64,000 nt of DNA from Acholeplasma sp. (GTDB lineage Bacteria; Bacillota_I; Bacilli_A; Acholeplasmatales; UBA5453). The notes under the pieces are model-generated. The model worked only from the letters and a program-made list of their open reading frames with translations, made no database searches and was not told the origin of the DNA. The DNA lies in contig JAVBWN010000014.1 of the NCBI GenBank assembly GCA_036677365.1, positions 32,001 through 96,000 on the forward strand, read 5' to 3'. Positions 1 to 22,448 of this stretch are shown in pieces; the stretch's first letter is position 1; each line of letters starts with the position of its first letter. The position numbers and the translations under genes were made by a program.

Positions 1-762
1 GAGTTGAAGTGCTCTATCAAACTCTACCAGTGTACTTGAACCATGGCAAACATAATATGAACCGCCTTCTTTTAGGACTTCTCTCATGTTCCTAAAAACT
101 TTTACTAAGAATGCTAAGAAATCATCCGATGGCATATTATCATTTTTAATTCTTCTATTATCGAATTGTTCATTACCATCTCCTTTAGCCCCAACATCAA
201 CATTGTAAGGAGGATCTGTTAGTACCAAATCAATTTGCTTTCCATCAACAAGACGTTTGATATCTTCTTCCTTCGCTGAGTCTCCACAGGTTAATCGATG
301 ATTACCTAAAATATAGATATCTCCAATTTGTGAGTAAGGTGTCTCCGGTATATGTTCATTTGGGTCAAAATCATCTTCAAAAACCTCATTAGGTTCAACA
401 TCGGATTCAAATCCAAAAAGTGACATATCTAGTCCATCGATGTTTTCTAATTCTAGTTTCAATTTTTCTAAATCCCATGATGCAATTTCTCCAACTTTAT
501 TGTCGGCCAAACGAAATGCTTTAACCTGTTGTGGTGTTAAGTCATTGGCAACAATACAAGGAACTTCTTCCAGTCCTAATGAGATTGCTGCTTTAAACCT
601 AGTATGCCCAGCGATAATAATATTGTTTCCATCGACAATGATAGGAACTTTGAATCCAAACTCTTTGATGGAGTTTGCTACTGCATCAACAGCTGCAGTA
701 TTATCCCTGGGATTATTCTCGTATTCCTTTAAATCACTTATCTTCTTGTTTATTAGTTGCAT
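1..762 (-). CDS. ParB-like N-terminal domain fused to N6/N4 DNA methyltransferase, phage type (runs off the window edge)
   Basis: Not in the ORF track; my translation from ATG 762 (GGAG RBS upstream): MQLINKKISDLKEYENNPRDN...EFGFKVPIIVD...IIAGHTR...AFRLADNKVGE...HRLTCGDS...DLVLTDPPYNV. Confidence 0.88.
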   Translation of the reverse strand, partial: MQLINKKISDLKEYENNPRDNTAAVDAVANSIKEFGFKVPIIVDGNNIIIAGHTRFKAAISLGLEEVPCIVANDLTPQQVKAFRLADNKVGEIASWDLEKLKLELENIDGLDMSLFGFESDVEPNEVFEDDFDPNEHIPETPYSQIGDIYILGNHRLTCGDSAKEEDIKRLVDGKQIDLVLTDPPYNVDVGAKGDGNEQFDNRRIKNDNMPSDDFLAFLVKVFRNMREVLKEGGSYYVCHGSSTLVEFDRALQL

Positions 763-1243
763 TGATATCTCCTATTTCCATTGGTTTCCAATCATTTTCT
801 TTTTGTCGTTCTAGAACCTTTTGTTCTGACAGCTCTAGTTCATACTTCTTTTCACTATATTCCTTACCAAAATTGATGATCAGTAAATATCGTGCAACTC
901 CCATATCACCAAGAATCGTTCTTGTTTGTTTAATCACTTTCTTTTTTGTCCCAGTTGGTGTTTGTTCAATGATTTGGTCTTCATTCACAATAGTGAATCC
1001 CATCGCACGTTCAAACATCTTCTCAAGAAGTGATTTTTTTAACATGTTTCTTCCGTCTTCGTAAGATTTCTCAACATCCTTATATTTCTTTCTAAGAGAA
1101 TACAATGTGTTTTCTGAAACTCCTAATTCAGTTGCAATGACACCCATACCACATGATCTACTCGCTAGTTCTTTGATGAGTTTTAGTTTTGATTGTAAGA
1201 CACCATCATTTTTCCATGTTTGATAATTATCCTTTCTCATCAT
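734..1243 (-). CDS. Phage HTH protein, terminase small subunit-like
   Basis: N-terminal HTH (IATELGVSENTLYSLRKKY) followed by ERAMGF...KKVIKQTR...GD, a pattern typical of putative small terminases; precedes the ParB-methylase. Confidence 0.6.
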   Translation of the reverse strand: MMRKDNYQTWKNDGVLQSKLKLIKELASRSCGMGVIATELGVSENTLYSLRKKYKDVEKSYEDGRNMLKKSLLEKMFERAMGFTIVNEDQIIEQTPTGTKKKVIKQTRTILGDMGVARYLLIINFGKEYSEKKYELELSEQKVLERQKENDWKPMEIGDINATNKQEDK

Positions 1244-1472
1244 CAGTCCTCACTTCTTCATCTGATTCTTGAGGAACTACGACTATTTCTCGCACTGCTT
1301 GTGCAGTAGGTGTATAACCAGCTCACGTGCATTTTACCGCATCAATGATAATCTGCTAGGTTGGCTCAGAGCATAAAAAAACCAATCATCTCTGATCAGT
1401 TTTGTGCTTACTATTTGAATTGTCACTAATTATATGACTTACAAATGTGCAAGATTCTATATAACTACTATT

Positions 1473-1961
1473 TTATCTAAGTTTGTCGTAAGCTTCTGTT
1501 TTCATCCATTTGGAGTACTCATATGCTTCTAAAACGGCAATTGTCGTAAATAGCAATAGCGATAAAATGATAAAAAAAGTATATGTTTGCCTAAGTGAAC
1601 TTGTAGAATCTGCTAATCTCAAGTATGTTTGAGTCGCATCTTTAACTTCTAAAAGTGTTCTTGTTCCAACATAAGAGATAGATAACTCTTGGCCGTTTTC
1701 AACATTTTCTAAAAAATCATCATAATCAAATGCATGCTGGTAATGGGTCTCAATCTCATACGTTTTGCCATCAGAATCCTTCAGAAGGTAGTATGATGAA
1801 TCATCATTAATAAACCTAATGGAGTCAAATATGATCGAAATAGACTTTGAATTATTCAGTTGATGAATGCCATTTAGTGAACCAATGAGCATACCAATCG
1901 GTAATAACAAAATAGCGATATAGATTACGATTCGTATTGCGATAGCTTTGTTCCTTGTCAT
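1473..1961 (-). CDS. Hypothetical membrane protein with two terminal transmembrane helices
   Basis: Hydrophobic N- and C-terminal segments around a soluble domain; GGTGAGG RBS. Confidence 0.7.
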   Translation of the reverse strand: MTRNKAIAIRIVIYIAILLLPIGMLIGSLNGIHQLNNSKSISIIFDSIRFINDDSSYYLLKDSDGKTYEIETHYQHAFDYDDFLENVENGQELSISYVGTRTLLEVKDATQTYLRLADSTSSLRQTYTFFIILSLLLFTTIAVLEAYEYSKWMKTEAYDKLR

Positions 1962-2076
1962 ATTTAAACCTCACCTTAAACACTTTAATAAGTCCAATTT
2001 GTTATGGTTTTTGCTTTTTTGTGAATTACTTGATTTTACCACTAAATGGCTATTCAGTAACCACAGTGTTATATGT

Positions 2077-2115
2077 TTTTCCTATTTGAGACTTCATAAA
2101 CTGGTGTTATTGAAT
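2077..2115. repeat. Cassette-boundary repeat core, copy A (accessory TTACTTGATT motif at 2026)
   Basis: ttttcctatttgagacttcataaactggtgttattgaat; 32/39 identical to copy D at 12598. Confidence 0.9.
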
Positions 2116-2186
2116 GGATGATAAAACCAAAATAGTTATATTAGATAACTTGTACGTTGACTTAATTATCTGTATGATCTCAATCA

Positions 2187-2528
2187 TTATTCATTCTTAG
2201 ATTTTAACGTTTTTAGTTCAAGTTCAACATCTCTTAAGTATTCGTCACGATGGTAGTCTCTTAAACTATTAAACTTTTTATTAATCTCACTAAATTTATG
2301 AGTTGTGTCACGATCAAAAACTTTATGATAACTTTTATCTAGGATAAGTTCTAAAAATCTACTGTCATAACTTGGTTTGCCATCATTCTCATTGAAACGA
2401 CCTTTGATATAACCTATTGGTTGTATAAATGCTTCTTCCGGACTGAATGAGTTACATTCATAATCAAACTTGTTATTAATCCTTCTTTCTAGTGTTTTTA
2501 CCATCTGCTTTGTAATAATATATTTCAT
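2187..2528 (-). CDS. Hypothetical protein (113 aa)
   Basis: ORF with strong AGGAGGA RBS; no family recognised. Confidence 0.7.
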   Translation of the reverse strand: MKYIITKQMVKTLERRINNKFDYECNSFSPEEAFIQPIGYIKGRFNENDGKPSYDSRFLELILDKSYHKVFDRDTTHKFSEINKKFNSLRDYHRDEYLRDVELELKTLKSKNE

Positions 2529-2677
2529 CTTAATTCCTCCTTATTTGATTTTTTTTAATACCCTTTGAGATTCTATTTAATGTTAAGGTATGCTTGGATT
2601 TTAATTGAGGAAATACCATGTTGACAAAGAAGTTCTCTAATTGCTCCATTCCAACCCTTAAAGTGGAAAATCAATAC

Positions 2678-3868
2678 CTAAAAAGTATATCTATGATGAA
2701 TGGGAAGGTTCTTTATGTATTTAAAATATATGTTTTTCAATATTTTACTTGCCTCAATATTGCTCTTGCTTAGTAATCTAGTAAAATCAGTAATTGTTTT
2801 TTTTGCAATGGGAACATCTTGGTAAATCGGGCGATAATAATCTCCACCTTCATATTCTCCTGTTGATTCCCTTCTACCATTAATCACTACGTCGGCGGTC
2901 ACAAAAAAACATTCAGCAAATTCTTTATAATTAGTAATTACATCATAATAGTCTGTATTATGAATTAAACTTTTCAGTTTTCGAATTACTGATTTTGGGT
3001 TAAAATCGAATACTCCAGATTTATTATAAAAACCTAATATTGTGTAAGAAAGTTCACTCGCCATTTCTCTAAAGATAGTTTTATTTTCATCTGTAATAGT
3101 AGTTTCAAAAACGTTATAAACATCTTCCAAAATGTCGTTAAAATTTTGATACCTCGAATCTACCTTATACTCACACATTTTAGAAACAATAGTGTCTAGA
3201 AATTCTGTATGTTCATCAAGGTGTAATTTGCTAATTATGTTTTGAAATATGTGTCCCAAATAGTAAATATCTGTTCTCATACTATAGTTGTTTTCCTTAT
3301 TAATCACTTCCTCTGGTTCAGATGCTGGCCAATTTAAAATAAGTGAACTGTTAGTTCCGCCAAAATCAATGTTAGTTTTACTATAACCAAAGTCAATTAA
3401 CTTAACTTGCCCATTTTCACTTACGAGAATATTCTTGTTCCTTAAATCTCTATGAATTATTCTATTTTTTTCTAAATGTTTAAAGCCTTCAATACACTGC
3501 ACAAAAATGCTCATTACCTGAGATGGATTAGTATTTAAATAACTGAAAATATCGTTTCCATCTATGTGTTCCATTAATATAAATCCAGTGGTATCACTTG
3601 TATCCGAAAATACAAAATGAGAAAAAATCCTAACAACATTCTCATGATAAGATGTGTACATTGATTTCAACTCTTCATTGAATCTCCCCTTTGATTCATC
3701 ATCATTAATCGGAACTGCTTTGCAAACAAAATTCATTTTTAAAGTATAATCATATAAAAGAGCAACCTCTCCCTGACCGCCACTTCCGATATAACCTATA
3801 AAAGTAAATCTATTTTTCCATTTTGAATTGACTAAAGACTCAATTGTCATAGAATATATCATCTCCAT
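2678..3868 (-). CDS. Hanks-type Ser/Thr protein kinase with unrecognised C-terminal domain
   Basis: GSGGQGEV P-loop, VCK lysine, IIHRDLRNKNIL catalytic loop, KLIDFG, DIYYLG. Confidence 0.9.
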   Translation of the reverse strand: MEMIYSMTIESLVNSKWKNRFTFIGYIGSGGQGEVALLYDYTLKMNFVCKAVPINDDESKGRFNEELKSMYTSYHENVVRIFSHFVFSDTSDTTGFILMEHIDGNDIFSYLNTNPSQVMSIFVQCIEGFKHLEKNRIIHRDLRNKNILVSENGQVKLIDFGYSKTNIDFGGTNSSLILNWPASEPEEVINKENNYSMRTDIYYLGHIFQNIISKLHLDEHTEFLDTIVSKMCEYKVDSRYQNFNDILEDVYNVFETTITDENKTIFREMASELSYTILGFYNKSGVFDFNPKSVIRKLKSLIHNTDYYDVITNYKEFAECFFVTADVVINGRRESTGEYEGGDYYRPIYQDVPIAKKTITDFTRLLSKSNIEASKILKNIYFKYIKNLPIHHRYTF

Positions 3869-3885
3869 TTTCTTTAAATAATAAA

Positions 3886-3976
3886 TTACTCGATTTATGC
3901 GCTATTTGAATGTCTTGTATCTAAAAATCAATATCTCAATCTTCCATTCTTGACGAGGAAACTTGTTTCATCGATT
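3886..3976. repeat. Degenerate cassette-boundary repeat, copy F
   Basis: Exact TTACTCGATT motif at 3886 followed about 55 bp later by a weak core match tcttccattcttgacgaggaaacttgtttcatcgatt. Confidence 0.45.
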
Positions 3977-4055
3977 CAATTGATATCAAATCGTCATTTT
4001 TTACTATTTAACTTAATCTCTGTAAAATTACCAAATCTATTTCAAAATCATCACA

Positions 4056-6086
4056 TTAGAGAGGTCTTAAATCCTTATCTATTACACCTAGTTCTATGAA
4101 TACCTCATCAAGTTTTTTCAACGTTTCAAATGTAAAATCCGTTGATTTAATCGCCTTACCAACCAGGTTTTCATTAACCTTCTTATTCCTAATATATTTT
4201 ACTCTATCCTCACCATGCAATAATCCTTCTAATGATTTTTCTTCAGAATCACCACCGACCAATACCTTTTGCTTAGAATCGATTTCATTCAAAATACTAA
4301 ATTTTGTCTTCGTGTCTGCATCTAAAATAATTTTGAACATTGTTTTTGAATCTTTAAGAAATTTATATAAAATTTTTGCGTTACCAGCACCTTCTAGACT
4401 GTAAATGAAGTATTTTGATAAATCAACTTTCCTTATTTTCATGTATGTTTCAAATAGAGTCTTATCACTTTTTCCTTCTACGAGTAGGTAAGTAATATTC
4501 TTATTTAGAATTAATTCTTTATAGCTATTTATTCCTATCTCGTTGATTACAGATATCGAATCGCTTATTGTTATTTGCTTAACAACTGATCCACTATCAT
4601 CAATATCAACAAAATAATAATTTTCTAGATTGTTAGGAATCATATCAATACTATTGGTGCAATAGATTACTTTATTTGTTTTTGAAAGTTCAATTAAGTC
4701 CATCAAAATTTGTTTTTGTGCATCAGGATGTAAAAATGACGCTGGTTCATCAATGATTATAATGTCATCTTTATCCATAGAATTCTTGAGAAAAATGTAT
4801 GACAGATACCATCTTCTACCTAAGCTAGTTGACTCCAATGGGATGTCAACACCATTTTTTTCTTTAATTTTATAAACAAAAGATCTGTTGTCTTCAGATA
4901 TAATTGCTGTTAATGAAAGAATTCTGTCTTTATCAAAAAGTGGAACGATTGTTGCAAGATATTTATCAATTTGATTCTTCAATTGCTTCTTTCGGCTATC
5001 AGTAATATTACTCAAATCTTTAATATCTTCGTTTTGTTGTAAAATGCCATTTTTCTTTAAATAGTTCGATACACACTTATAGATTACATTATTGCCATCA
5101 GTTCTTCTATTATAATAATCATTCGTTGTTTGAAACAACAAAGTACTTTCATTATCTAAATATAGTGCATCATAATCAATACTAGATTTTATTAAATTTA
5201 AAAAAGTGTTGTATTTTTTATCTTTCTTATCATTCTCATCATAATAATTGTTTAATCGATTATTAAACAAACGATGGATTTTTTGAACAATCCTATTAAA
5301 CTCATCAAGTGCTTTAGTAGCATTATCATAGTAATCCTTTAATTCACTATTTATTCTATCAATAGTCTTATCATACTCATCATAATTTATATCTGTAAAA
5401 GTCGCTAAAAGCGGATCAATATAAAGTGATTCTTTGCTTAAAAACCTAAGGTTGGGTACATTTATATATGGCAGTGATTGTACTTCATCATAATCAATAT
5501 TGATCTTACCCTTCTTAAAGTTATCTGACATAAACCTCTCAAGCGTATTAACAATTGTTTCCATTTTTGTTTTCGAGTCATCACTGCTACGTTCAAATCC
5601 ATAGAAATTTGTAGCGCTAACAATGTCTATACGACTGCTAGTTTTATTTTTCTTTGAAAGTTCTTCTATGGTAATTTCACTTAATTTCTTATAATAACAT
5701 TCAAAGTTTTCTACTATTTTATTTTTAAGACCTCTTAACTGATTTTCCCATTTTGAGATAGATAACTCATGTATTTTGGCTTTTACTCTAGTGGCTCTGA
5801 AATCACGATAACTTGATTCCACCTCGACAATTCTCATATCTTTATCAAACTCAACTTCATCTGAGAAGTTCTTGATTTCATCATCATTCAATTCATAAAT
5901 CAATTTGTAATTTGCTCTTTCATTGTGATGTTGATCAACTGAAAAAAACTGTTTAATCGCTCGTAGAATATTAGTTTTCCCACTACCATTCTTTCCAACG
6001 AAACAAAGAAGATTTTGCGAAAAATCTATCTCAATCGGTTTTCTAATGGATTTGTATTGACTGATTATCATCTTCTTTAATTTCAT
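4056..6086 (-). CDS. OLD-family ATP-dependent nuclease (ABC-type ATPase plus TOPRIM)
   Basis: Walker A GKNGSGKT, coiled-coil insert, signature-like SLGRRW, Walker B IIIDEPASFLHP, TOPRIM LLVEGKSD...LDAD. Confidence 0.85.
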   Translation of the reverse strand: MKLKKMIISQYKSIRKPIEIDFSQNLLCFVGKNGSGKTNILRAIKQFFSVDQHHNERANYKLIYELNDDEIKNFSDEVEFDKDMRIVEVESSYRDFRATRVKAKIHELSISKWENQLRGLKNKIVENFECYYKKLSEITIEELSKKNKTSSRIDIVSATNFYGFERSSDDSKTKMETIVNTLERFMSDNFKKGKINIDYDEVQSLPYINVPNLRFLSKESLYIDPLLATFTDINYDEYDKTIDRINSELKDYYDNATKALDEFNRIVQKIHRLFNNRLNNYYDENDKKDKKYNTFLNLIKSSIDYDALYLDNESTLLFQTTNDYYNRRTDGNNVIYKCVSNYLKKNGILQQNEDIKDLSNITDSRKKQLKNQIDKYLATIVPLFDKDRILSLTAIISEDNRSFVYKIKEKNGVDIPLESTSLGRRWYLSYIFLKNSMDKDDIIIIDEPASFLHPDAQKQILMDLIELSKTNKVIYCTNSIDMIPNNLENYYFVDIDDSGSVVKQITISDSISVINEIGINSYKELILNKNITYLLVEGKSDKTLFETYMKIRKVDLSKYFIYSLEGAGNAKILYKFLKDSKTMFKIILDADTKTKFSILNEIDSKQKVLVGGDSEEKSLEGLLHGEDRVKYIRNKKVNENLVGKAIKSTDFTFETLKKLDEVFIELGVIDKDLRPL

Positions 6087-6222
6087 ATTACACCTTCTTG
6101 ATTGTTTCTTACTTGCAACTAGATGCTGATTTTCTTTTTATAATATATGTGTAAGTATAGTGCATTCTTAAATACACGGATTCATCACTAAAAGTTTATC
6201 GTACAGCCATTAAGATATATCT

Positions 6223-6261
6223 TTTTCTCATTTGAGACATCATAAACAGTGATTATTGCAT
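6223..6261. repeat. Cassette-boundary repeat core, copy E
   Basis: ttttctcatttgagacatcataaacagtgattattgcat; separated by 3 bp from the stop codon of 6265..7020. Confidence 0.9.
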
Positions 6262-6264
6262 TCA

Positions 6265-7020
6265 TTATTTCTTAGAAATTATCAGGAATCTATGTTCGGT
6301 TGATTCAATATAACCAACTTCTTTAATTCTTTTATCTAAATCAATAAACTTATCAAAATGTCTTTCTACTGAAAAATCAATAAATTCCCAACTGATGATT
6401 TTAGCAAAATAAGCGATAGCTCCCAAATCAAAGAATTTTATTTTAGGGTAATACTCTTGTTGATCAATGACTTTAAATCCTTTATTTATTAAGCGTTGAA
6501 CTGATTTTTCAAGTGTCATTTCTGGAAATTGATCCGTATGGTTGTCATCAAAAAAAGTAGCAAGATCTTTGTTATTAAATGCACCAATTTGCTGCGTAAT
6601 AAAGATACCACCTTTTTTTAAAACACGATATACCTCATTTTCATCATATGATTCATGTCTATTAACGACCATATCAAAATGATTTGATGGAATGTTAGTC
6701 AATTGATTATTTTCTGTAATTGGGTAAACTTTAATCCCTTTAGGTGCTAGTATTTCTTGACATAGTTTAATATTAGGTTCATAAGCTTCTGTCACAGATG
6801 TTAATTGGTGTGGATGATTGAGTGTTAATAAGAACTCGCCACCACCTGTTCCCATATCAAGTAATGTATCTGTTGGGTTTAAATATTTTAAAAGGATTTT
6901 CTTGTAATCCCAAGGTAGTATTTCGTTTTCCCATCTATTATTCAAATAAGAAAAATCCCATCCCTTAAATGTATGTTCTTCTTCTTTAATTAAATACTTT
7001 TTTAGTTCGTTGTTGTACAT
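6265..7020 (-). CDS. Class I SAM-dependent methyltransferase
   Basis: FKGWDFSYL...LPWDY N-terminus, LLDMGTGGGE motif I, FDMVVNRH, VLKKGGIFITQQ. Confidence 0.88.
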   Translation of the reverse strand: MYNNELKKYLIKEEEHTFKGWDFSYLNNRWENEILPWDYKKILLKYLNPTDTLLDMGTGGGEFLLTLNHPHQLTSVTEAYEPNIKLCQEILAPKGIKVYPITENNQLTNIPSNHFDMVVNRHESYDENEVYRVLKKGGIFITQQIGAFNNKDLATFFDDNHTDQFPEMTLEKSVQRLINKGFKVIDQQEYYPKIKFFDLGAIAYFAKIISWEFIDFSVERHFDKFIDLDKRIKEVGYIESTEHRFLIISKK

Positions 7021-7038
7021 ATGTTTGCTTCCTTATCA

Positions 7039-7130
7039 ATTTGCTCATATTTACTCGATTCTACCTATCTATTACCTATACAAGTATATCATTTTCCACT
7101 TTAAGACCTCATAAACCACTATTATTGAAT
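7039..7130. repeat. Cassette-boundary repeat, copy B (full ~90 bp unit, core 7092-7130)
   Basis: Core ttttccactttaagacctcataaaccactattattgaat lies 3 bp from the stop of 7134..8288; 7039-7076 matches 8289-8326 at 31/38. Confidence 0.9.
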
Positions 7131-7133
7131 TGA

Positions 7134-8288
7134 TTATCTGTAGGTATATTTGAGATATAAATCACCTAATTTTGCTTTTTTAATCATTACTCTTTTTGGT
7201 AATTCTGGTCTTGATAATGCTAATGTACCAATTATAATCTGACGATAGTTTTCGTAAATATCAACAAACGCATCCAGAATTTCATAAACCTTAGGGATAT
7301 TTACAGTTATTTCTGATTGTATAGTATTGTCTTTAAACACGATGGTTGGTGAATATGTAGTTATATGGAAATTCTCTTTATTTCTCTTGATTGAAAAGAT
7401 TTTTAATTCATCTTTATAGCAATTCGAAATTGCATCTAACTTATCCGAAAATTGTTTCTTTTTTAACCTAACATTAACAAGTGCTGTAATCTTGATAATA
7501 TATGAAAATGCTGATGAATGTCTCTCATCTGATTTAGTCATAAATAATTCACGGATTCTTGATATAAGCATTGTCAATATTTCATCTTGCATTATAATAA
7601 TATCAGCAGCTTCAATATGTGACTTTTCAGATGTTTTTTGTCTAAATTGATATTTTTTATTATTTTTAGAATATCTCAACAACTCTCTAGATAGTCTTAT
7701 TGTTGCACCTACATACCAATCTATAGAATTAAAGTGTTCTAAAAAAAACTCTAGTAACCTTTCTTTTTTGTAAAATGTAACCAATGGTTTCACATCATCG
7801 GCGATGGTATTTAGGTTTTCATTTCTATTTCTTAATCTCTTGTTTAATTCAGAAGTAAAAACAATTACATGTGAATAATGACTGCTTATATCTATCTCTG
7901 AATATTGCCACATCCCATTAATAATAAACTCAGATAAATCTACAGATAATAAAAGTAAGTAGACTTCATTTTCTCTTATAATAGTCGATTTTCGAAGAAT
8001 CTCTAGTACTTCTGAACGTTCTAAATTGTGCCATTCAATCCTAAGAACTTCAGAAATTCTTTCTTTAACCTGAGAATAATTATCAGAAAAGTCAAACAAG
8101 AAATATCCATCATTAATCATATGATTTATTGAATTGAAAAATGCTAACTCATCAAGTGAAGAACATAATTCCGTAATTTTGCCAAATAAGAGTGAACGGA
8201 AATTTGGATCCATATTTATTCTTGGATTTATCAATTTTTCTAATCCTTGTCCATTTATAGTTCTATTCATCCTAATCACCTTTTCCAT
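7134..8288 (-). CDS. Hypothetical protein (384 aa), no family recognised
   Basis: Long ORF bounded by repeat copies B and C. Confidence 0.75.
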   Translation of the reverse strand: MEKVIRMNRTINGQGLEKLINPRINMDPNFRSLLFGKITELCSSLDELAFFNSINHMINDGYFLFDFSDNYSQVKERISEVLRIEWHNLERSEVLEILRKSTIIRENEVYLLLLSVDLSEFIINGMWQYSEIDISSHYSHVIVFTSELNKRLRNRNENLNTIADDVKPLVTFYKKERLLEFFLEHFNSIDWYVGATIRLSRELLRYSKNNKKYQFRQKTSEKSHIEAADIIIMQDEILTMLISRIRELFMTKSDERHSSAFSYIIKITALVNVRLKKKQFSDKLDAISNCYKDELKIFSIKRNKENFHITTYSPTIVFKDNTIQSEITVNIPKVYEILDAFVDIYENYRQIIIGTLALSRPELPKRVMIKKAKLGDLYLKYTYR

Positions 8289-8377
8289 ATTTGCTCACTT
8301 TAACTTGATTTAAACTATCTATTACCCTTGTTGGACTACCATTGCTTACTCATGAGTTCATAAACCATTAATCAAGG
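8289..8377. repeat. Cassette-boundary repeat, copy C (conserved left part, degenerate core retaining TCATAAAC)
   Basis: atttgctcactttaacttgatttaaactatctattacc matches copy B; TCATAAACCA at 8358 sits at nearly the same spacing as in B; abuts the stop of 8378..8782. Confidence 0.75.
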
Positions 8378-8782
8378 TTAATCAATAGATTCAAGAGTAA
8401 ACCACTCATTACCCGTTTTGAACTTGAATACAACTTCTTTTTCATCTTGGTATCTGCTTGTCAAATATGGTCCGTACTTAGCATTTATAAAGTCTACAAA
8501 CGAAAAAATATCGAAGCAATCAACTGGTTCTCTACTTATTAAGAAATATTTGTATCCTTTATCTCTTCTTTTATTAACAAAATATATAACATCTTCTTTT
8601 GAAGAACATGCACTCACGAACTTGTTTCTTAATATTTTTGGAAACACTTTATTTTTGACTGCTCTGAAGATATATGTCTTTTTCCTAAATTCGGGAAAAT
8701 CATGATACAATGATTCAAGCATTTTTCTATGCTGGTCGGTCGGATAGTTAGAACCAAGATATTCATTTAGATTTCTCGTCAA
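8378..8782 (-). CDS. Putative ADP-ribosyltransferase, R-S-E clade; true start may be ATA at 8836
   Basis: Motifs in the expected order: YIFRA, FVSACSS, YQDEKEVVF. Frame is open upstream to an AGAGGA RBS at 8843-8848. Confidence 0.6.
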   Translation of the reverse strand: MTRNLNEYLGSNYPTDQHRKMLESLYHDFPEFRKKTYIFRAVKNKVFPKILRNKFVSACSSKEDVIYFVNKRRDKGYKYFLISREPVDCFDIFSFVDFINAKYGPYLTSRYQDEKEVVFKFKTGNEWFTLESID

Positions 8783-8914
8783 AACCAGTAGTCCAAGACC
8801 AACAAAGTAAGCATCATAATCAAAAGTATTGTCTATAATAATTCCTCTTTTCTATTCAGAATACTGTATATAACCTTATTACCTAGATATTAGATTTTTC
8901 ATTTTCTGTTGTGT

Positions 8915-8948
8915 AAAAAAAGGGGTCATTATTAACTCTAATACCCCT
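8915..8948 (-). terminator. Intrinsic terminator of the R-M operon
   Basis: Minus strand aggggt...acccct stem followed by a T-run, just after the stop at 8956. Confidence 0.6.
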
Positions 8949-8955
8949 AATTCAT

Positions 8956-9564
8956 TCATAATATTGATAAATAATACCACTTATCATCTAATAATTTGTC
9001 TCTAACATCCTTTGAAAGAGCAACAGATCTATCCGCGTTTGTTCTTTCATCATCTTGCTTAACAGTAATTAAATCAACAGTTTGAATATCCGAGATGAAA
9101 TCTGAGAGTAGCTCGATTTTTGCTTTTTGTGTCAAACTTACAAGACTTAATTCCTTCACCTTATTATTTATTAAACTTAATATATGTTTGTTGGAGGGAT
9201 TATGATCAAAGTGAAAAAATTTTCCAGAAAGCTCTCGCTGTATTGACCCTTTCGAGTTGCTAGAAAACATTGCCCAGTTTCTATCAAGTGTTTTTTTCAA
9301 TATACCTACCCTATCTTCTTCAATGGTAAAGGGTATATTTTTATTCCCTAATTCGATCAACGCTGAACCGCTAATCCTGCTTCGTACAAATCTAGTACTT
9401 AATTTCATCCACGAACCACATAAAGTCGAGTTACCACCTCCACCTTTAAGTAGCTCCATCAAAAATAAATCATCATATTTAGCATTAAATATCTGAAAAT
9501 AAAAAACAGCAGTATTTCTAATCCATACATCCCTAGACATATTACTTGAAATAGTTTTCCCCAT
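8956..9564 (-). CDS. Hypothetical protein coupled to the R-M operon, possible His-Me-finger-like nuclease
   Basis: Start overlaps the upstream stop; FHFDHNP...DLITVKQDD resembles EHxxP...ITxxED HNH variants (weak). Confidence 0.55.
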   Translation of the reverse strand: MGKTISSNMSRDVWIRNTAVFYFQIFNAKYDDLFLMELLKGGGGNSTLCGSWMKLSTRFVRSRISGSALIELGNKNIPFTIEEDRVGILKKTLDRNWAMFSSNSKGSIQRELSGKFFHFDHNPSNKHILSLINNKVKELSLVSLTQKAKIELLSDFISDIQTVDLITVKQDDERTNADRSVALSKDVRDKLLDDKWYYLSIL

Positions 9565-10727
9565 TAATTTAACTCCTTATGTATACTTGATAATCTTGAC
9601 TTATTTAAAACAGTGTATACATGCATGGATATAGTCGGTTTCTTTTGACGAACTTTAGAAAACTCAAATGTAACATAACCTGCACTAATCTTAACATCGT
9701 TAATTTTAAGAAAGTATAAACTGTTAATGTCATACCGAGTAATTTTCGTCATTCCTCTTCCCTTTTTCTCATTGCTAGCATTATAAAGCATGGAAACCAT
9801 AACCCCATCAAATTTAGCACCTTGTGCATTTAAAACTAGTTTCAAATTATCAGGAGTGAAAACTGGATAATTATTTCTTCCAGCCATCCTAATTTCTGAA
9901 CCGGAAATATCAATGTTATCAAGCAAATGGGTAGAAGGTAAAGCGAAGATTTTACTGGAGTCTTGTAACAAATATAAATCTAGTTTCTTGGTTCTATATG
10001 TCGCAGATACCAATTCATCGGCAGTATCTTTATCAATTTCATTTCCGATTTTATAATTTGATCCGGCCATTTTATAAACATCTGTTACAGTATTGAATTT
10101 TTCTATGTACTTTAAAAATCCTGGTAACTCAGTCTTGATTTTTTCTGAAGGGATGAGCTTTCCATCTTCTTTGTAATCTAAATCATACTCTCCCATTTTG
10201 GCTTTTGAATCTTTAATCTCTAATCTAATTCTATAACCTTCATTAACGAATATTGCATCAATAGAGGATGAATCTCCATATTGAAGCAAAACTACACCAG
10301 ATTTTGAACCATGGTAAATATATCGTGGGAACTGACCTTCAAGTTCTCCACCTTTTGCTTTAATCAATGAAGTCAAAAGATGTGTAGGCACATTATCACG
10401 ATTATCGTCAGCATCAATAAAATATTCTAATTCTAACAGGTTTGCAACTGTCTGTATAACAAAGCATTCATTTAATATAGCAGGTTGTAATGCTTGCTGC
10501 TTTGAAAATTGCTTAGCAAACTCTGCTTGTGCAGCATTTGATACCTCCAGTGTTTTTTTTAATGATGATAATTCATTGATAAATGAATCGTAATCTGAAT
10601 ACAGTTGGAAATTTTCCTTATAAAAAACGTCTAATTTTCTAATGTTTGATTTAGAAGCCACTAACTTAGTTAACTTCCCATCATTATATATTTTGTTGAA
10701 TAGTAGAACTAACGCTTTATTCGTCAT
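9564..10727 (-). CDS. Putative type II restriction endonuclease, PD-(D/E)XK fold
   Basis: Overlaps the methylase stop; E...SIDAIF...RLEIKD catalytic-like motif. Confidence 0.6.
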   Translation of the reverse strand: MTNKALVLLFNKIYNDGKLTKLVASKSNIRKLDVFYKENFQLYSDYDSFINELSSLKKTLEVSNAAQAEFAKQFSKQQALQPAILNECFVIQTVANLLELEYFIDADDNRDNVPTHLLTSLIKAKGGELEGQFPRYIYHGSKSGVVLLQYGDSSSIDAIFVNEGYRIRLEIKDSKAKMGEYDLDYKEDGKLIPSEKIKTELPGFLKYIEKFNTVTDVYKMAGSNYKIGNEIDKDTADELVSATYRTKKLDLYLLQDSSKIFALPSTHLLDNIDISGSEIRMAGRNNYPVFTPDNLKLVLNAQGAKFDGVMVSMLYNASNEKKGRGMTKITRYDINSLYFLKINDVKISAGYVTFEFSKVRQKKPTISMHVYTVLNKSRLSSIHKELN

Positions 10728-12276
10728 GGCTCACCTCATAGTTTTTATGAAGTAGTTCCATGTCTTTCGCATACTTAGGAAACAATACCTCATTTATTTT
10801 GAGTCGATATTCTTCAGGGAACTTAATACTCTCTTGTTGTTCTCCTGCGTTTAATTTGTATGAAACATAGTCAGATTCCTTATCAATCATTGAAGCAATT
10901 GTATCTTCAATTTCTATTATTTTTTCAAACAATTCCTCATGATATGGTATAGAATAAAGTATTCGTTTCGAAAAGAGAATACCGCCATCTGAGAAACGCC
11001 ACCACATGTATGCGTAACTTGAGTTTAACAAAGAATATAACAAATCAAACGAAGCTTCATTCTTAGCATATATTATGAAGTATCCTTTTCTGTTTAAGGA
11101 TTTTTTACTAGCAAGTGTAAAATATCTTGCCGAAGTAGAGACGTACAACTTATAATCATTACTTTGAAGTAATGGCTCAAATTGAATAAGATCAGACAAG
11201 TATTTCACATCACCATGACTAATCTCATTTACCATTGGTTCAAGTTCTCTAAATGCTTTAATTGGTCGATCTAGCATTTGGACATTGGATCCTAATTTAC
11301 TTCTTAAAAACTCCAAATTTATAACTTCAAATCTTTGATCAGTTCTAAATCTAATAAGGTGTGTCAATTTAAACCCATTATGACCATTTCTCTTTAAGGA
11401 TGTAATTGAAGCTCTAACACCATTTGCTGAGTTTGTGTTAAATATACCATGCTTTTTTCCACTAAATAACGTTCCTGGAACATTATCAAATGAAAATATC
11501 TCACCATAGAAATTATCTGATAGTTTTGATCTAAGTTTTGAGAATTTAGCAGCAACAAGATACGACTGGGGAGATACTATAACTGCATTTTCACAATAAT
11601 TGATAATCTTGTTCATAAATGCCGCATACAAGTCCTTTGCTTGAAGTAATACATCGTCCACATTCCATGACTTATTAAATTGCTTAATCAATGCATATGG
11701 TGGATTAGTTATCACAGATACTCCTGCTGGAAGTGACACTCTTTTATCTAGGAAATCTGCATGTACAACATTTATTTTATGTGAGACTTCAACTTCGAGT
11801 AAAATATCTATCTTTTTCAAACATATATTTAACGCAATACCATCAGCGTCATATAGATATAATTTACCATCCATAATAAAATCAATCGGATCGATTCCTT
11901 TTGTATCTTTAAGCATACTTAGAACCTGTATGATTAGGTTTCCTGTACCACAACCAACATCTGCTATTGTTAGGATTTTGTTTTCTAATAATAACCTAGA
12001 CATGACAAGACTAACATCTTTTGGTGTATAGTATTTCCCCATATCCTTTTTCGAAATTTTATTTGTGTGTGCTAGTCCAATTTCATACAGTTCTCCGAGG
12101 TTATCAAAATCTAAGAGGACATTTTTGGACAACTCTACGATTCGTTTATCAGTTAGAAAACTTAGTATAACTTCCCAAGTTTTTGTCAATCCAATTTCAT
12201 CTATCATTTTCAAATAGTGGTCGATAGTAAAGGTGTTGATATTTATTTTTTGATTTGGTTTGACTGTTTTGCTCAT
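10717..12276 (-). CDS. N6-adenine DNA methyltransferase, gamma class
   Basis: GKYYTP, DVGCGTGNL motif I, ITNPPY motif IV, LLNSSY in the C-terminal TRD region. Confidence 0.9.
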   Translation of the reverse strand: MSKTVKPNQKININTFTIDHYLKMIDEIGLTKTWEVILSFLTDKRIVELSKNVLLDFDNLGELYEIGLAHTNKISKKDMGKYYTPKDVSLVMSRLLLENKILTIADVGCGTGNLIIQVLSMLKDTKGIDPIDFIMDGKLYLYDADGIALNICLKKIDILLEVEVSHKINVVHADFLDKRVSLPAGVSVITNPPYALIKQFNKSWNVDDVLLQAKDLYAAFMNKIINYCENAVIVSPQSYLVAAKFSKLRSKLSDNFYGEIFSFDNVPGTLFSGKKHGIFNTNSANGVRASITSLKRNGHNGFKLTHLIRFRTDQRFEVINLEFLRSKLGSNVQMLDRPIKAFRELEPMVNEISHGDVKYLSDLIQFEPLLQSNDYKLYVSTSARYFTLASKKSLNRKGYFIIYAKNEASFDLLYSLLNSSYAYMWWRFSDGGILFSKRILYSIPYHEELFEKIIEIEDTIASMIDKESDYVSYKLNAGEQQESIKFPEEYRLKINEVLFPKYAKDMELLHKNYEVSHDE

Positions 12277-12542
12277 ATTAAACCCACCTTCCCTTTATAA
12301 TCTTTACATTTAATTCATTATCATTTAGCCAACTTTTATTACAACAATATAAGTAGAATATATATAATTATATATATGCTGTCATCAATTAGATTTTATC
12401 ACAGAACCGTAGAATTTGCTATTTTTGTGTTCGAGTGTAATCGCTTAAACTATCAATGCACTATTCGAAACATAATCATGAGAATTCCGAATTCTAAAAT
12501 CTGTAAATGAACATACTCAATAATTACATTAATTTTTATATT

Positions 12543-12636
12543 CTACTCGATTTTTCCACTATTTACCACTCTTTCAACTAGTTGAAAAGGGTATCGATTT
12601 TCCTATTTAAGACATCATAAACATGCATTATTGATT
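12543..12636. repeat. Cassette-boundary repeat, copy D (core 12598-12636)
   Basis: ctactcgatttttccacta, then a 16 bp palindrome tttcaactagttgaaa, then core ttttcctatttaagacatcataaacatgcattattgatt. Confidence 0.9.
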
Positions 12637-12741
12637 AGATAAATTGTATCACAAAAGCCCTTGTAATTCTACCTTTAATTAAAATTAAAGCACCTTAAAG
12701 TTTATGATCACTCATCTTCATCAGAGACATCAATATTCAAC

Positions 12742-13242
12742 TTATTCAATATTCGGATACATTTCATAGTAACTATCAACGAAATCTTCAATATTTTTGA
12801 ATTCGTTAATAAACTTTTCATAGAGTTCTAAGGCGAATCCTTCTGCTTGTTGTTCTAATAGGTGTGTACCCCATTTATCACTTGAATCATCGTAGTTTTC
12901 GGCTTTAAATTCATGAATCATTTGAGTCATTTCATCCTCTGTGAATAGGTTATTTTTAACTCCCATACCATATCCAATCACAGCTGAGTATTGAACTGAA
13001 TGAAATGTTTCATGGAATGCACATTTGATGATTCTATCAGTCTGTGCAGTTCTAAGCCATTCACGATTGTACCGAATAACAAACATTTCCTTTTCGAAAA
13101 GACCTGAGTGATTGATTGACTTAAACATATCTCCATCGTTAATGAACACCCATAGTGCATCATCTACTTTCAAAAATTTTCTGGCAAAGTTGGTTGCTGC
13201 TATAACGAGTTTTTCATTTAAACTCCCATCACAATTATTCAT
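12742..13242 (-). CDS. HExxH zinc metallopeptidase-like protein (ImmA/IrrE-like)
   Basis: AFHETFHSVQ plus downstream EQQAEGFA; own TATAAT and GGAGG RBS. Confidence 0.65.
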   Translation of the reverse strand: MNNCDGSLNEKLVIAATNFARKFLKVDDALWVFINDGDMFKSINHSGLFEKEMFVIRYNREWLRTAQTDRIIKCAFHETFHSVQYSAVIGYGMGVKNNLFTEDEMTQMIHEFKAENYDDSSDKWGTHLLEQQAEGFALELYEKFINEFKNIEDFVDSYYEMYPNIE

Positions 13243-13401
13243 GTAATCACTCCTCCAATTACAGATGATTATACTACATGTTTTACTGAATTCAATTAAA
13301 ACTCATACGTTTTTATTCTCCAAAAATAATGTTTATAAAAGTCACTCTTAAAATCGGTTTTATCATAGATAAGTCATCACATTTGATAAAATATTTACTA
13401 C

Positions 13402-14487
13402 TCATCTGACAGAACACTTCTTATCAAATGTTTGTCTTAACTGCATCATTTCTTCGTTGTAACGTGCCAGGTAGTGTTCTTTACAATAGAGTTGTTGTTT
13501 CACTTCATCAATCGGAAACATCGCAATCGATTCTTTCTTTAGTTTTGCCTGGATTGTCTCATTTAATTTTAAGAGTTCTTTGAGCTCAGATGAGTTACTC
13601 CATTCAATACTTCGTTGATTCTTCTTGATTGCATTTGTTAAATACCCTAGTTTGTTATTGATCTTTGATTTATCTGTTTGGGATAGTTTTCTAAACTGGA
13701 ATAGAAAGTACTGAACGTGTTTCTTCAGTTCATCAAACTCATACGTTGTTTTTAAATAATTATCAAAGAAAGCATTCGTAGCTAATAGATTATCCATATC
13801 TCCTTCTTCAAGGTATTTAGAGTATACCAAGTATTTTGTTAATATATGAGACTTTGAAAACTCTTCATGCCACTGATTGGTTTTCAAATTTTCTAAAAAA
13901 TCATTGATTATTGATTCACTTGAAAAAGTGACTTTATCATATTTATCATATTTATCATTTCTATCATTTTGATCGATTGATTTGATATCTATTTTATTAT
14001 CTCTATACTCTATACTCTTATCTCTTAACTCTGGGGGGAAATTTCCGTGGACAATAGCGTGGACTTTTTCCACGCTATTGTCCATCAATTGTTTTTCCTT
14101 TTGCTTTCGTTTTACTTCTGCCCAACCGGTTTCTGAACCGACTAGTTTATCAAATCCTGTTATGCAAATAATGTTTGATTCATCTTCGTAAAGCAAACCT
14201 AGTTTCATCAACATATCTATCGCAACTCGAATGGTATCAATCTTAAAGAACATGAGTTCCTGGGTAATAGTTGTTAAATCATATATTAGTTCCATCTCAT
14301 TTACTTTTTGGATGAGTCTTCCATTGGAGTTGATTGATAACATGATAAGGTAAACATATATGCTAAAATACCAACCACCATCTGGTTGGCGCATTAGCAG
14401 CTTCATTTCCTTAGATTGCATCAGGTCCTGGCGGAGTTTGATCCAATAATATATTTCATTTCTTTTATCATTTCTCATAGATACCAC
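13402..14487 (-). CDS. Phage replication initiator with replisome organiser N-terminal domain
   Basis: YYWIKLRQDLMQSKEMKLLMRQPDG...YL...LVGSET; central low-complexity repeat linker. Confidence 0.85.
   Translation of the reverse strand: MVSMRNDKRNEIYYWIKLRQDLMQSKEMKLLMRQPDGGWYFSIYVYLIMLSINSNGRLIQKVNEMELIYDLTTITQELMFFKIDTIRVAIDMLMKLGLLYEDESNIICITGFDKLVGSETGWAEVKRKQKEKQLMDNSVEKVHAIVHGNFPPELRDKSIEYRDNKIDIKSIDQNDRNDKYDKYDKVTFSSESIINDFLENLKTNQWHEEFSKSHILTKYLVYSKYLEEGDMDNLLATNAFFDNYLKTTYEFDELKKHVQYFLFQFRKLSQTDKSKINNKLGYLTNAIKKNQRSIEWSNSSELKELLKLNETIQAKLKKESIAMFPIDEVKQQLYCKEHYLARYNEEMMQLRQTFDKKCSVR
14048..14084. repeat. Perfect 16 bp inverted repeat inside the rep gene, candidate phage origin
   Basis: tggacaatagcgtgga-ctttt-tccacgctattgtcca, next to tttatcat tandem repeats at about 13933-13968. 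Confidence 0.75.
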
Positions 14488-15682: not shown

Positions 15683-15886
15683 CTATTTATTTTTTAATGT
15701 ATCGATTGGTTTTTCTTTGACTTTAATCTCTTTTAATGTTAAAAACTTTTCTAGAGATTCTTCAGTTACCCTTAACTGATTCCCAAGTCTAATTGCTTTT
15801 AATTCTCCAGTGGCGATATACTTATTAATGGTTTTACGTGAGACGGACAACATCTCACATACTTCAAATACGCTATATATTTTCAT
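15683..15886 (-). CDS. Excisionase-family HTH protein
   Basis: YSVFEVCEMLSVSRKTINKYIATGELKAIRLGNQLRV. Confidence 0.85.
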   Translation of the reverse strand: MKIYSVFEVCEMLSVSRKTINKYIATGELKAIRLGNQLRVTEESLEKFLTLKEIKVKEKPIDTLKNK

Positions 15887-16626
15887 GATCTTTTAGTTTT
15901 CCCATTTGCTTTCTCCAAAATTTCGTTGATATATCGGATACCTTTATCCGAGACAACGATTTGTGTTGTTTTCTTTTCTTTGTCTCCGATTTGGCTAATC
16001 CATGTGAAGTATCTGAAGCAACCATTCTCCACTAGACTTGCGGTTGGACGACAAAACTCATCAATGGCACCACTTTGCCTAAGATGACCTAATAATTGAG
16101 TATATGTAGTTTTGTACTTAAGTTTTTCATGCACTCTACGTAACGGAACCATCGAAGTGTTATCTGTAAACTCAAAGTAGAGCTTAGCACCTTCTTTTAA
16201 TTCTTCGAGTTGACCTTCTAAGACATTGATCTTTCTGGTTTTTTTCTCGAAACTAGATATCAATTCATCTTGTTCTTCTTGTGGTAAAATCATCCCTTTA
16301 GTATAACCACAGTAGGAAGTCTTCATATCGCTAATAATTGTTAGGATTGATTTTGCATAGTACTCTGCATCTTTTAACTTGGAGAAGTTTTTTATGACTT
16401 CAATATCCTCTTCGGCTACACCAGCTAATTTTTTAACATTTGCACCAAACTTAACATCAAAATAGTTAAGATTTCCCCTATACTTCTCAGGCAAATCTTT
16501 GATTTCCACATCAAATAATTTTTTCATATCATTGAGTTCAATAAAATAACAATGTAGTTTTTCGCTAAATATGATTCGTACGGTTTTGCCATTATAAACC
16601 GTGACCGTGAATACTTTATTTTTCAT
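15883..16626 (-). CDS. Phage antirepressor-like protein with KilAC-type C-terminus
   Basis: C-terminal LLGHLRQSG...PT..LVENGCF...TTQIVVSDKGIRYI; start set at ATG 16626 after an AGGAAGG RBS. Confidence 0.7.
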   Translation of the reverse strand: MKNKVFTVTVYNGKTVRIIFSEKLHCYFIELNDMKKLFDVEIKDLPEKYRGNLNYFDVKFGANVKKLAGVAEEDIEVIKNFSKLKDAEYYAKSILTIISDMKTSYCGYTKGMILPQEEQDELISSFEKKTRKINVLEGQLEELKEGAKLYFEFTDNTSMVPLRRVHEKLKYKTTYTQLLGHLRQSGAIDEFCRPTASLVENGCFRYFTWISQIGDKEKKTTQIVVSDKGIRYINEILEKANGKTKRS

Positions 16627-17560
16627 GTCTACCTTCCTTTTTGGTCTTAAGTATTGCATTTGAGACTAGTTCATTTGTACCTGATTTCATTTTTTCTACT
16701 AAATGTGAGTAAATCTGTGTGCTTGTAATGCTGGAATGTCTTAGAGATTCTTTAACTTCCAATATGGATGCGCCTTGGATAAGGGATAGTGTGGCAAATG
16801 AATGCCTAGTTGAGTGAGCAGAGAATGCTCTACTATCTAGACCTATGGAACGAAAAGCATCTTTAACCATAGTCCTAATAACAGCTGTCTTCATACGAAT
16901 CTCTTGACCGCTACGACGGTATGTTGTAAATAGTGGATTATTGCGGTCGTCTAAATTGGTATTATCTCTAGTTTCTAGATAGGCAAGTAGTATTTCGTAA
17001 ACATCATCTGTAAGTTTAACAAAATTATCCTTGTCATCTCTACCTTTTCCTTGGATGTATAAAACATAACCATTACCTATGACATCAATATCTTCAATGT
17101 CAGCTCGTTCCACTTCAATTGCTCTCAATCCTGTTGTAAAAAGTAATGCGAGAATAGCTAGATTCCGTTTCCCTTTAACTGTGTTGACTTTTTTTCGAGC
17201 ATTATGAATCACTTTTCTTATATCTTCCTCAGTTAATGGTTGTCTTTTATAAGTTGTTGCTACTTTTACACCTTTAACTGCATAAGTGATATCATCATCA
17301 ATTCCGTTTAATTTTAGATATCTATAAAATCCACGAAGAACAACAAGTGATTTTTGGATAGATGATGAAGATAACTTCTTTTTAACTAGATAATCCTTAT
17401 ACGCTAGAATCACATTCCTATTTGGGTTAGTTATGTTATACGTTTCTAGATAATCTTGATAAGCATGAAGTGACTTTCGATATGATTCCTTAGATATCTC
17501 TTTTAAGTCTAGGAACGAGATGTACTCTGAAATTTTCTCATTTAGATCATAGTTCATCAT
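16616..17560 (-). CDS. Tyrosine recombinase, XerC/D-like (314 aa)
   Basis: TGLRAIE (R), GKG (K), HSTRH (HxxR), LRHSSITSTQIY (H, Y); short N-terminal core-binding domain. Confidence 0.92.
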   Translation of the reverse strand: MMNYDLNEKISEYISFLDLKEISKESYRKSLHAYQDYLETYNITNPNRNVILAYKDYLVKKKLSSSSIQKSLVVLRGFYRYLKLNGIDDDITYAVKGVKVATTYKRQPLTEEDIRKVIHNARKKVNTVKGKRNLAILALLFTTGLRAIEVERADIEDIDVIGNGYVLYIQGKGRDDKDNFVKLTDDVYEILLAYLETRDNTNLDDRNNPLFTTYRRSGQEIRMKTAVIRTMVKDAFRSIGLDSRAFSAHSTRHSFATLSLIQGASILEVKESLRHSSITSTQIYSHLVEKMKSGTNELVSNAILKTKKEGRHEK

Positions 17561-18759: not shown

Positions 18760-18769
18760 TATGTATGCT

Positions 18770-18797
18770 GTGAGCCACCCCATCGGCTCACTTTTTA
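18770..18797 (+). terminator. Intrinsic terminator after the repressor
   Basis: gtgagcc-accccatc-ggctcac followed by ttttt. Confidence 0.75.
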
Positions 18798-18869: not shown

Positions 18870-19097
18870 ATGAACAGCTATAATATTTTGAAATCAGCAC
18901 TTTATGAATCAATCGTTTTATCTTTGTTAAAACGAAACATTTTATCGCTTGATGAAGCCATCGGTTGCTTAAATGCGATAGATAAAGACATAAAGTCAAC
19001 GAATGACTTGAATAAAGAAATGATTATGGTAAAACAAAAAAGACCTACCAATTGTAGTATTGGTAAGTCAGACTTGGAGGATTGTAATCATGAATAA
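18870..19097 (+). CDS. Small hypothetical protein leading the recombinase operon
   Basis: AGGAG RBS; overlaps the start of the first recombinase. Confidence 0.55.
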   Translation: MNSYNILKSALYESIVLSLLKRNILSLDEAIGCLNAIDKDIKSTNDLNKEMIMVKQKRPTNCSIGKSDLEDCNHE

Positions 19098-22374: not shown

Positions 22375-22448
22375 TGGAGGCCCCGACCGGATTTGAACCG
22401 ACGATCAGGCAGTTGCAGTGCCGTGCCTTACCACTTGGCTACAGGGCC
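22375..22448 (-). tRNA. tRNA-Cys (GCA)
   Basis: Minus strand GGCCCTGTAGCCAAGTGGTAAGGCACGGCACTGCAACTGCCTGATCGTCGGTTCAAATCCGGTCGGGGCCTCCA; 74 nt cloverleaf with encoded CCA. Confidence 0.95.

Follow-up and report, generated by a model that had tools for sequence, protein, structure and literature searches.

Organization of the prophage and its repeated element

The window analyzed here, a 64,000-bp stretch of an Acholeplasma sp. genome (G000:C14:32001-96000), harbors in its left 22 kb the right part of a prophage, in which an asymmetric element of about 105 bp recurs between cargo genes. The gene order in this part is a serine recombinase pair by tRNA-Cys, cI/Cro-like genes, a tyrosine recombinase, an antirepressor, an excisionase-family gene, a DNA methylase, a replication initiator (rep), the cargo, a terminase small subunit-like gene, and a ParB-methylase; homologues of terminase, portal, and capsid genes sit left of the window. 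The two large serine recombinases (19060..22171, plus strand), a probable prophage integrase pair, adjoin the tRNA-Cys gene (22375-22448). On the minus strand lie the Xer-like tyrosine recombinase (16616..17560), which has no arm-binding domain and is the candidate enzyme for the repeated element, the excisionase-family helix-turn-helix protein (15683..15886; TIGR01764, E=1e-11; phrog_66), the phage replication initiator (13402..14487; PF09681), and the terminase small subunit-like gene that opens the late module (734..1243; phrog_309, E=5e-14).

A preliminary description of this DNA had placed four 39-bp cores with 27 invariant positions at 2077, 6223, 7092, and 12598, and we confirmed all four. 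Shuffled sequences gave a mean of 0.00 core matches (100 shuffles) against four observed, and a scan of the whole genome (1.97 Mb) with a core profile, as that description had suggested, matched only the four array cores (scores of 50-53; next best 17), without a fifth. The cores are the conserved end of the larger sites, all of which lie on the minus strand: the distal site at 2016..2119 (core 2077-2115; centre CTGGTG, read on the plus strand, 2101-2106), two inner sites at 6165..6266 (core 6223-6261; centre CAGTGA, 6247-6252) and 7032..7135 (core 7092-7130; centre CCACTA, 7116-7121), and the proximal site at 12536..12641 (core 12598-12636; centre CATGCA, 12622-12627), which has a class-specific palindrome in its long arm. 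The element is a real feature of this DNA. In addition, a decayed site that has lost its short arm was identified at 8280..8368 (minus strand; centre CCATTA; nhmmer E=6e-6), and the gene on its right has a 68% homologue in genome G006, where the preceding site is intact. This site corresponds to one of the degenerate copies proposed earlier (8289-8377), whereas the other two (3886-3976 and 8862-8907) gave no nhmmer match at E<=50 and were dropped, position 3887 being a single TACTCGATT word only.

Iterated profiles on related prophages and metagenomes provided 125 distinct sites, later 131. Pattern searches matched 10 of 61 related genomes, in part by chance, along with 16 stretches of genome contigs and 52 of metagenome contigs, and the named records with the same motif belong to Acholeplasmataceae, Paracholeplasma, and Acholeplasma; the motif had no match in the viral sequence collection. 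Two-mismatch matches in G045, G028, and G059 failed as sites on closer comparison. Elsewhere in the genome of the window there is a weak partial long-arm match without a core (G000:C18:6048-6102, minus strand, E=0.045).

Read on the gene strand, a site consists of a stop codon, the short arm ATTCAATAA, five free bases plus G/A, the second arm TTTATGA, and a phased extension of about 60 bp, often with a -10-like hexamer, before the next ribosome site. The short arm follows directly on the stop of the preceding gene, and a stop-like triplet is present in 109 of 131 sites. Relative to the core start, conservation among sites from relatives runs from about -58 to +45 and comprises TTTAC-like words (-51, -41, -19, and +1) as well as a G at each of -28, -7, +14, and +36. 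The TACTYGATT motif, reported previously to the left of CATAAAC, belongs to a set of TTTAC(T/C)-like repeats that recur with a phase of about 10-11 bp; it occurs at three of the four cores (at 68, 58, and 72 bp) but not at 6223, and the palindrome described between motif and core is clear at 12598 but not at the other three. The spacer, described as 7 bp and variable, differs in every copy in the window, but it recurs in classes across relatives. Its variable part is better taken as 6 bp (C/T plus N5), because position 25 varies with the five free bases (T in all three GGTAA sites). The -10-like hexamer occupies a fixed place in the long arm of 55 of 129 sites, which suggests that many modules may bring their own promoter. 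Promoter and terminator scans of the four sites found no excess of sigma-70 promoters, no -35 consensus, and no terminator; folding of eight strands revealed no single-strand hairpin on either strand (z -1.35 to +1.53), and an Rfam scan of 1-23000 returned tRNA only.

The cargo open reading frames between 2187 and 12276 all lie on the minus strand, as previously stated, and that of the outermost module (1382-2100) has the same orientation. The latter encodes a 162-aa predicted membrane protein (1473..1961) with no family match, a homologue of which stands between two sites in locus L076. The next module (2187..6086) encodes a 113-aa unknown protein, a Ser/Thr kinase (2678-3868; Pfam), and an OLD-like ATPase-TOPRIM protein (4056-6086); similarity to PD-T4-6 (PADLOC) and to AriA/Old was recorded for this module. 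It is followed by a single-gene module of 864 bp centre to centre that encodes an S-adenosylmethionine-dependent methyltransferase (6265..7020). The proximal block (7134..12276) contains genes for 384-, 134-, and 202-aa unknown proteins, a 387-aa probable restriction endonuclease (9564-10727), and an N6 DNA methyltransferase (10717-12276; MTase_II, E=3.7e-45). A weak lead for the endonuclease is R-HINP1I, found in 14-25% of look-alike clusters, and its single-sequence AlphaFold model (pLDDT 38) was uninformative. The 384-aa protein (7134-8288) gave a weak HEPN_AbiU2/RteC-type lead, below 0.9.

Exchange of modules at the sites

Genome G005 carries the same prophage at 93-98% identity with wholly different cargo, and identity stops at 2126, just right of the core at 2077-2115, and resumes at 12551. 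Similarly, one contig of run X4, which perhaps has a common source with the window yet differs from it, has 2758 other bases in place of 1382-2077, including the gene for the 162-aa protein, and rejoins the window at the core. Of the non-proximal sites, 14 independent pairs that share the left neighbour kept the long arm (0.89-0.92) and lost identity after position 36-39, whereas nine pairs with the same right neighbour had long arms at background (0.47-0.76 vs 0.49-0.72) and 0.93+ identity right of the centre. Centres were identical in 11 of the 14 same-left and 5 of the 9 same-right pairs, compared with 606 of all 6105 non-proximal pairs. Whole modules were common centre to centre (864/864, 883/883, 663/663, 1155/1155, and 691/691); the methyltransferase module of the window matches the AGTGA-CACTA module of L076 over its full length with 94.7% identity, and in L076 the neighbours are different.

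A module is thus the stretch from one centre to the next: the long arm upstream belongs to it, and downstream it includes the short arm of the following site. Exchange of modules among relatives took place by crossovers inside core positions 18-36, usually between sites with the same centre. The earlier proposal of cassette junctions in a prophage, largely loaded with defence genes and with breakpoints at the core, is supported by these shared modules and identity edges. Four pairs with unlike centres are exceptions to the matching rule: two take the centre from the left, and two have the same left neighbour and yet differ. In seven proximal pairs, the long arm is shared further outward, a pattern for which the simple model offers no explanation. 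Runs X7, X15, and X17 contain pieces of the 7080-13600 block at about 99% identity from the CACTA site, where the missing left cover proves nothing; two listed run joints with 20-21-base sides were ignored.

The outer cargo border at 1381, seen in runs X4, X15, and X17, abuts a separate regulatory-type box of 17 bp that heads the late operon (1360..1376, minus strand). A second copy heads the serine-recombinase operon (18763-18779, plus strand; <=3 mismatches), and the box differs from the cassette sites. This border fits a double crossover between a site and the backbone, and the cassette sites need not be read as the late operator. Between 12709 and 13277, run X4 differs from the window at dozens of positions only across a 166-aa gene, a mosaic patch in the backbone. 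Assemblies of L064, L068, L071, L077, and many metagenome contigs break at sites (in one metagenome-assembled genome, four contigs have a site near the end), as expected if module content varies within the population.

Centre classes and array order

The most frequent centres among the 131 sites were CAGTGA (27), CCACTA (20), CTGTAG (9), CACTGA (8), CGTACA (8), and CATGCA (7). Sites had a single orientation in 39 of 39 arrays, none of which had sites on both strands. The classes are arranged in the order TGTAG/TGGTG, GCTAA/CCTAA/GGTAA, AGTGA/ACTGA, CACTA, and ATGCA/GTACA, as if they were addresses; this order agreed in 75 of 79 class pairs, compared with a mean agreement of 0.70 and a maximum of 0.835 in 5000 shuffles. 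Repeats of one centre in the same array were depleted (4/133 vs 12.5 expected), and modules mostly keep their slot. Genome G082, found via its recombinase alone, bears a four-site array in the same order. Exceptions were L111, L115, L123, L125, L126, and G029. Stranded sites or arrays with no recombinase in the DNA examined, in a chromosomal or transposase-rich context and resembling clusters of attC sites lacking an integrase (CALIN), were found in L019, L023, L073, L097, L110, L116, L124, and L126.

The recombinase and the sites of its homologues

The recombinase at 16616-17560 resembles XerA/XerC/XerD and falls under the curated cut-offs for XerC, XerD, XerS, and XerA. Its SAM-like domain begins at residue 8-21. 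R146, K172, H249, R252, H275, and Y284 are invariant in 33 of 33 homologues, so that catalytic residues are kept intact although serine recombinases cover integration. With thresholds that differed between the searches, homologues were counted in 28 of 201 genomes at the level of the order, in 24 of 172 genomes from one family, and in 23 of 399 genomes across the class. The viral sequence collection held one recombinase locus, and recombinases in INPHARED phages were <=32% identical among the matches listed (25 of 75).

A de novo search for intergenic RTAA-N5-GT pairs (cut >=19/30) in 55 elements with recombinase homologues found matched pairs on the gene strand (19-29/30) in 18 of 43 scorable elements and none on the opposite strand (0/26, maximum 18). 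In families with two sites, the first lies about 48 bp after the excisionase-like gene and the second after restriction-modification (R-M) cargo, with centres usually one base apart; where two elements differ in cargo, identity mostly picks up again no more than about 10 bp from the ATAA of the second site (in one pair the distance is 18 bp, and in two pairs the adjacent gene is shared as well). Each clade has its own arm (TTTATGA, TGAACAG, TGAACGG, TGATT, TATCAGG/TATGTGG, TAACTGG, and TTAACGG), and arm type tracks the recombinase clade across host families, while elements of a single host can differ in it, as the two prophages of G000 do. These comparative results support the suggested link between the sites and this recombinase family. 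For 35 hand-chosen first sites, the Spearman correlation of arm with protein identity was 0.44 for the recombinase, 0.47 for the excisionase-like protein (Xis), 0.32 for Cro, 0.20 for cI, 0.20 for rep, 0.18 for the antirepressor, and 0.03 for the ParB-methylase; the partial r was highest for the recombinase (0.31 vs 0.23 and 0.21; 18 elements). This test was made without G029, L157, and L211, whose sites the pattern missed. The covariation indicates that specificity lies in the recombinase-Xis-Cro operon and not in the host, without singling out the recombinase. No window-type sites were found downstream of recombinases <=50% identical, apart from G082.

The second prophage of G000 encodes a recombinase of 39% identity and has a site pair of its own (G000:C25:57722 and 66659; centres TGCTT and TCCTT) around rep and R-M cargo. 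Short satellite-like elements with a recombinase, Xis, rep, a terminase small subunit-like gene, and cargo have the same site geometry (L145, L147, L193, L216, and L226); L193 has three sites with the identical centre TCTAT, and an almost perfectly palindromic site lies upstream of the recombinase gene in L145 and L226. A broad phage host range is indicated by L153, L155, L212, and L230, whose recombinases are near-identical although their hosts span three families and two orders. Recombinase matches in G082 (G082:C2:192151-193053) and G219 (G219:C80) contain two internal TAA stops, and G219 holds both recombinase types.

Proposed mechanism and alternative explanations

In engineered recombinase-mediated cassette exchange with heterospecific lox or FRT sites, direct sites with different spacers allow replacement and not deletion, and the phage arrays would be a natural, multi-slot version of this design. 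On the comparative sequence evidence, we consider it probable that modules are exchanged slot by slot between phage genomes at spacer-matched sites, in a natural cassette-exchange system working like pdif cointegrate shuffling and probably driven by the phage-encoded Xer-like recombinase. Each element would be a double-stranded tyrosine-recombinase site composed of the short arm, a 6-bp overlap, the TTTATGA arm, and the extension of about 60 bp. The recombinase would need homology in the overlap, so that neighbouring sites with unlike centres could not delete the gene between them, and the excisionase-family protein might act as an architectural factor that binds the phased repeats of the long arm. 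Two phage genomes in one cell, a prophage and a superinfecting or induced phage, would cross at a site of the same address, and the swap would then be completed either by another crossover at a different matched site or by homologous recombination within the backbone. Genes could reach new slots when unlike centres occasionally cross over or when two-slot circles integrate. R-M genes and others for defence or fitness would in this way form a combinatorial library. The broader proposal is evenly balanced in our judgement: that this is a third gene-cassette system beside integrons and pdif, in which phages of wall-less Bacilli, with their own recombinase, an excisionase-like partner, and ordered incompatible addresses, carry out programmed slot exchange of defence and resistance-like genes from one phage genome to another, with orthogonal recombinase-site pairs per clade. 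Our literature search, in which subscription journals were poorly covered, found no account of this system.

Several observations weigh against spacer-matched exchange by the phage recombinase. The long arm of the proximal site stays with the backbone to about -40, and contigs of four runs contain no joint that skips a module, though contigs cannot show circles. Because sites with an identical centre also share the longest perfect match (19 bp), they would be preferred by homologous recombination as well; the -10-like hexamer provides a second, regulatory reason for conservation, and the order and spacer statistics are inflated by shared ancestry. The array of G029 has another order. Among the scored elements, 25 of 43 had no pair >=19, mostly those with 30-42% identical recombinases or on short contigs, and the upstream cargo border of two-site families has no site. 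Arm similarity tracks Xis (0.47) and Cro (0.32-0.44) about as well as the recombinase (0.44), kin share recombinase, Xis, Cro, and arms by descent, and the recombinase tree comes from a quick, unfinished search. G082 pairs a recombinase of the GTGAAC-type site with a window-type array.

Alternatively, the elements could be mobile regulatory cassettes like the PeSL of T4-type phages, that is, promoters or operators for a dimeric phage regulator that recombine homologously at the longest match, with centre classes recording slot ancestry. We regard this as unlikely, but as the main rival explanation. The fixed offset of the hexamer, the location of each site directly upstream of a gene, and covariation of the arm with Cro and Xis nearly as with the recombinase all fit it. 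There is also precedent, since PeSL are repeated intergenic elements in a variable region where genes are exchanged and may hold a promoter; they consist of a promoter and a stem-loop terminator, with no known dedicated recombinase (PMC2839356). Here, by contrast, the sites have a dyad, classed centres, and a co-varying tyrosine recombinase, with neither terminator nor excess of sigma-70 promoters. Moreover, crossovers are limited to a window of about 19 bp although the long arms are unlike, and in two cases with differing centres it is confined to <=9 bp on the right side of the centre. The Xer-type ATAA-N6 geometry is kept across families otherwise unrelated in sequence, the late and integrase operons already have another box at their head, and the intact spare recombinase would have no target.

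Tn916/Tn1549 and CTnDOT combine a tyrosine recombinase and an excisionase with a variable short centre and phased repeats on one side; they tolerate unlike centres and move the whole element. Single modules might likewise be excised and integrated as circles with tolerance of heterology, the excisionase binding the phased repeats. The recombinase and the excisionase-family gene do share an operon, the centre comes from either side in the four mismatched pairs, a repeated centre, the expected result of circle integration, is present in L125, L115, L123, and L126, and related genes occupy different slots. Free insertion would scramble the order, yet the order is largely shared and centres mostly match; the recombinase has no arm-binding domain, the sites are internal and not at element ends, and no circles appeared in run contigs (a weak point, given the limit of contigs stated above). 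Circle transfer seems improbable.

Spacer-matched exchange by the phage enzyme shares its logic with the pdif modules of Acinetobacter plasmids. In these, modules lie between Xer-type sites (ATAA-centre-TTAT) with variable 6-bp centres and are exchanged at identical or near-identical ones, unlike centres block excision, and spacer-matched cointegration is a tested rule (PMC11705084, PMC13141974). Our comparison likewise found exchange at matching 6-bp centres (11/14 and 5/9 vs about 10%). The pdif analogy in the preliminary description therefore stands for the logic of matching spacers but not for membership, which orientation and arms contradict. The pdif sites have XerC and XerD arms, alternate in orientation, are served by host XerCD/FtsK, and occur on plasmids of one genus (PMC11705084, PMC13141974). 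In contrast, the present sites occur in Bacilli prophages, are all direct, have an element-specific arm that tracks a single element-encoded recombinase, and possess a phased extension of about 60 bp and a fixed address order. It is very improbable that they are true pdif-type sites served by the host chromosomal Xer system, even though the inner arm is Xer-like (ATAA/TTAT), exchange is spacer-matched, and arrays are stranded in chromosomes away from the phage recombinase. There is only one ATAA/TTAT arm, and the rest of G000 yielded nothing similar (core score 15.5 vs 31-33; a 37-contig assembly, in which the host dif itself was not identified), orientation does not alternate, and arm type varies among elements of one host while being common to several host families. 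Chromosomal dif candidates at half-genome in the complete genomes G058, G044, and G037 were rejected, with weak scores of 4.7, 4.7, and 12.3 in coding-like sequence.

An integron or CALIN with atypical attC sites can hardly account for the data: tandem same-strand cassettes of variable content (39/39), sites right after stops, conserved AAC/GTT, defence or resistance-like cargo, and enzyme-less stranded arrays are integron-like when set against an IntegronFinder survey, in which complete integrons are nearly absent from Firmicutes (PMC9024848), but conservation here lies in sequence and not in attC structure, the TIGR02249 score is 75.6 bits against a cut-off of 265 with the match limited to residues 223-294, and modules stay in their slots instead of entering at a single attI, the first site being 4 kb from the recombinase, beyond rep, and the proximal slot usually holding R-M genes. 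The integron-like capture proposed at first is not supported, and the exchange system belongs to neither the integron nor the pdif family.

Cargo of related arrays and its implications

Defence hotspots in prophages are known, and their turnover without self-deletion is mostly unexplained. With the boundaries, the matching rule, and a candidate enzyme all named, the question is reducible to a plasmid assay. At least seven arm types with distinct recombinase clades, together with natural incompatible centres, would be ready orthogonal tools for cassette exchange.

We delimited 74 modules from centre to centre, many with genes of no known family, which are candidates for new defence systems. In the arrays of relatives, the proximal slot mostly contains R-M genes, and the other slots contain Abi-, DRT-, Tmn-, and Gabija-B-like genes and many unknown ones (80 proteins scanned). 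Resistance-like cargo, comprising lnu-like, APH, GNAT, and GyrI-like genes, fell under curated resistance cut-offs in all cases; in communities from digesters and landfills, lnu-like, APH, and GNAT genes occupy these same slots. Modules of this kind, with lincosamide nucleotidyltransferase-like, APH-like, or GNAT genes, are located at L102:130-669, in the L138:8077 region, at L099:1760-2671, and at L105:9460-9990; the lnu-like module was 99.7% identical in two elements.

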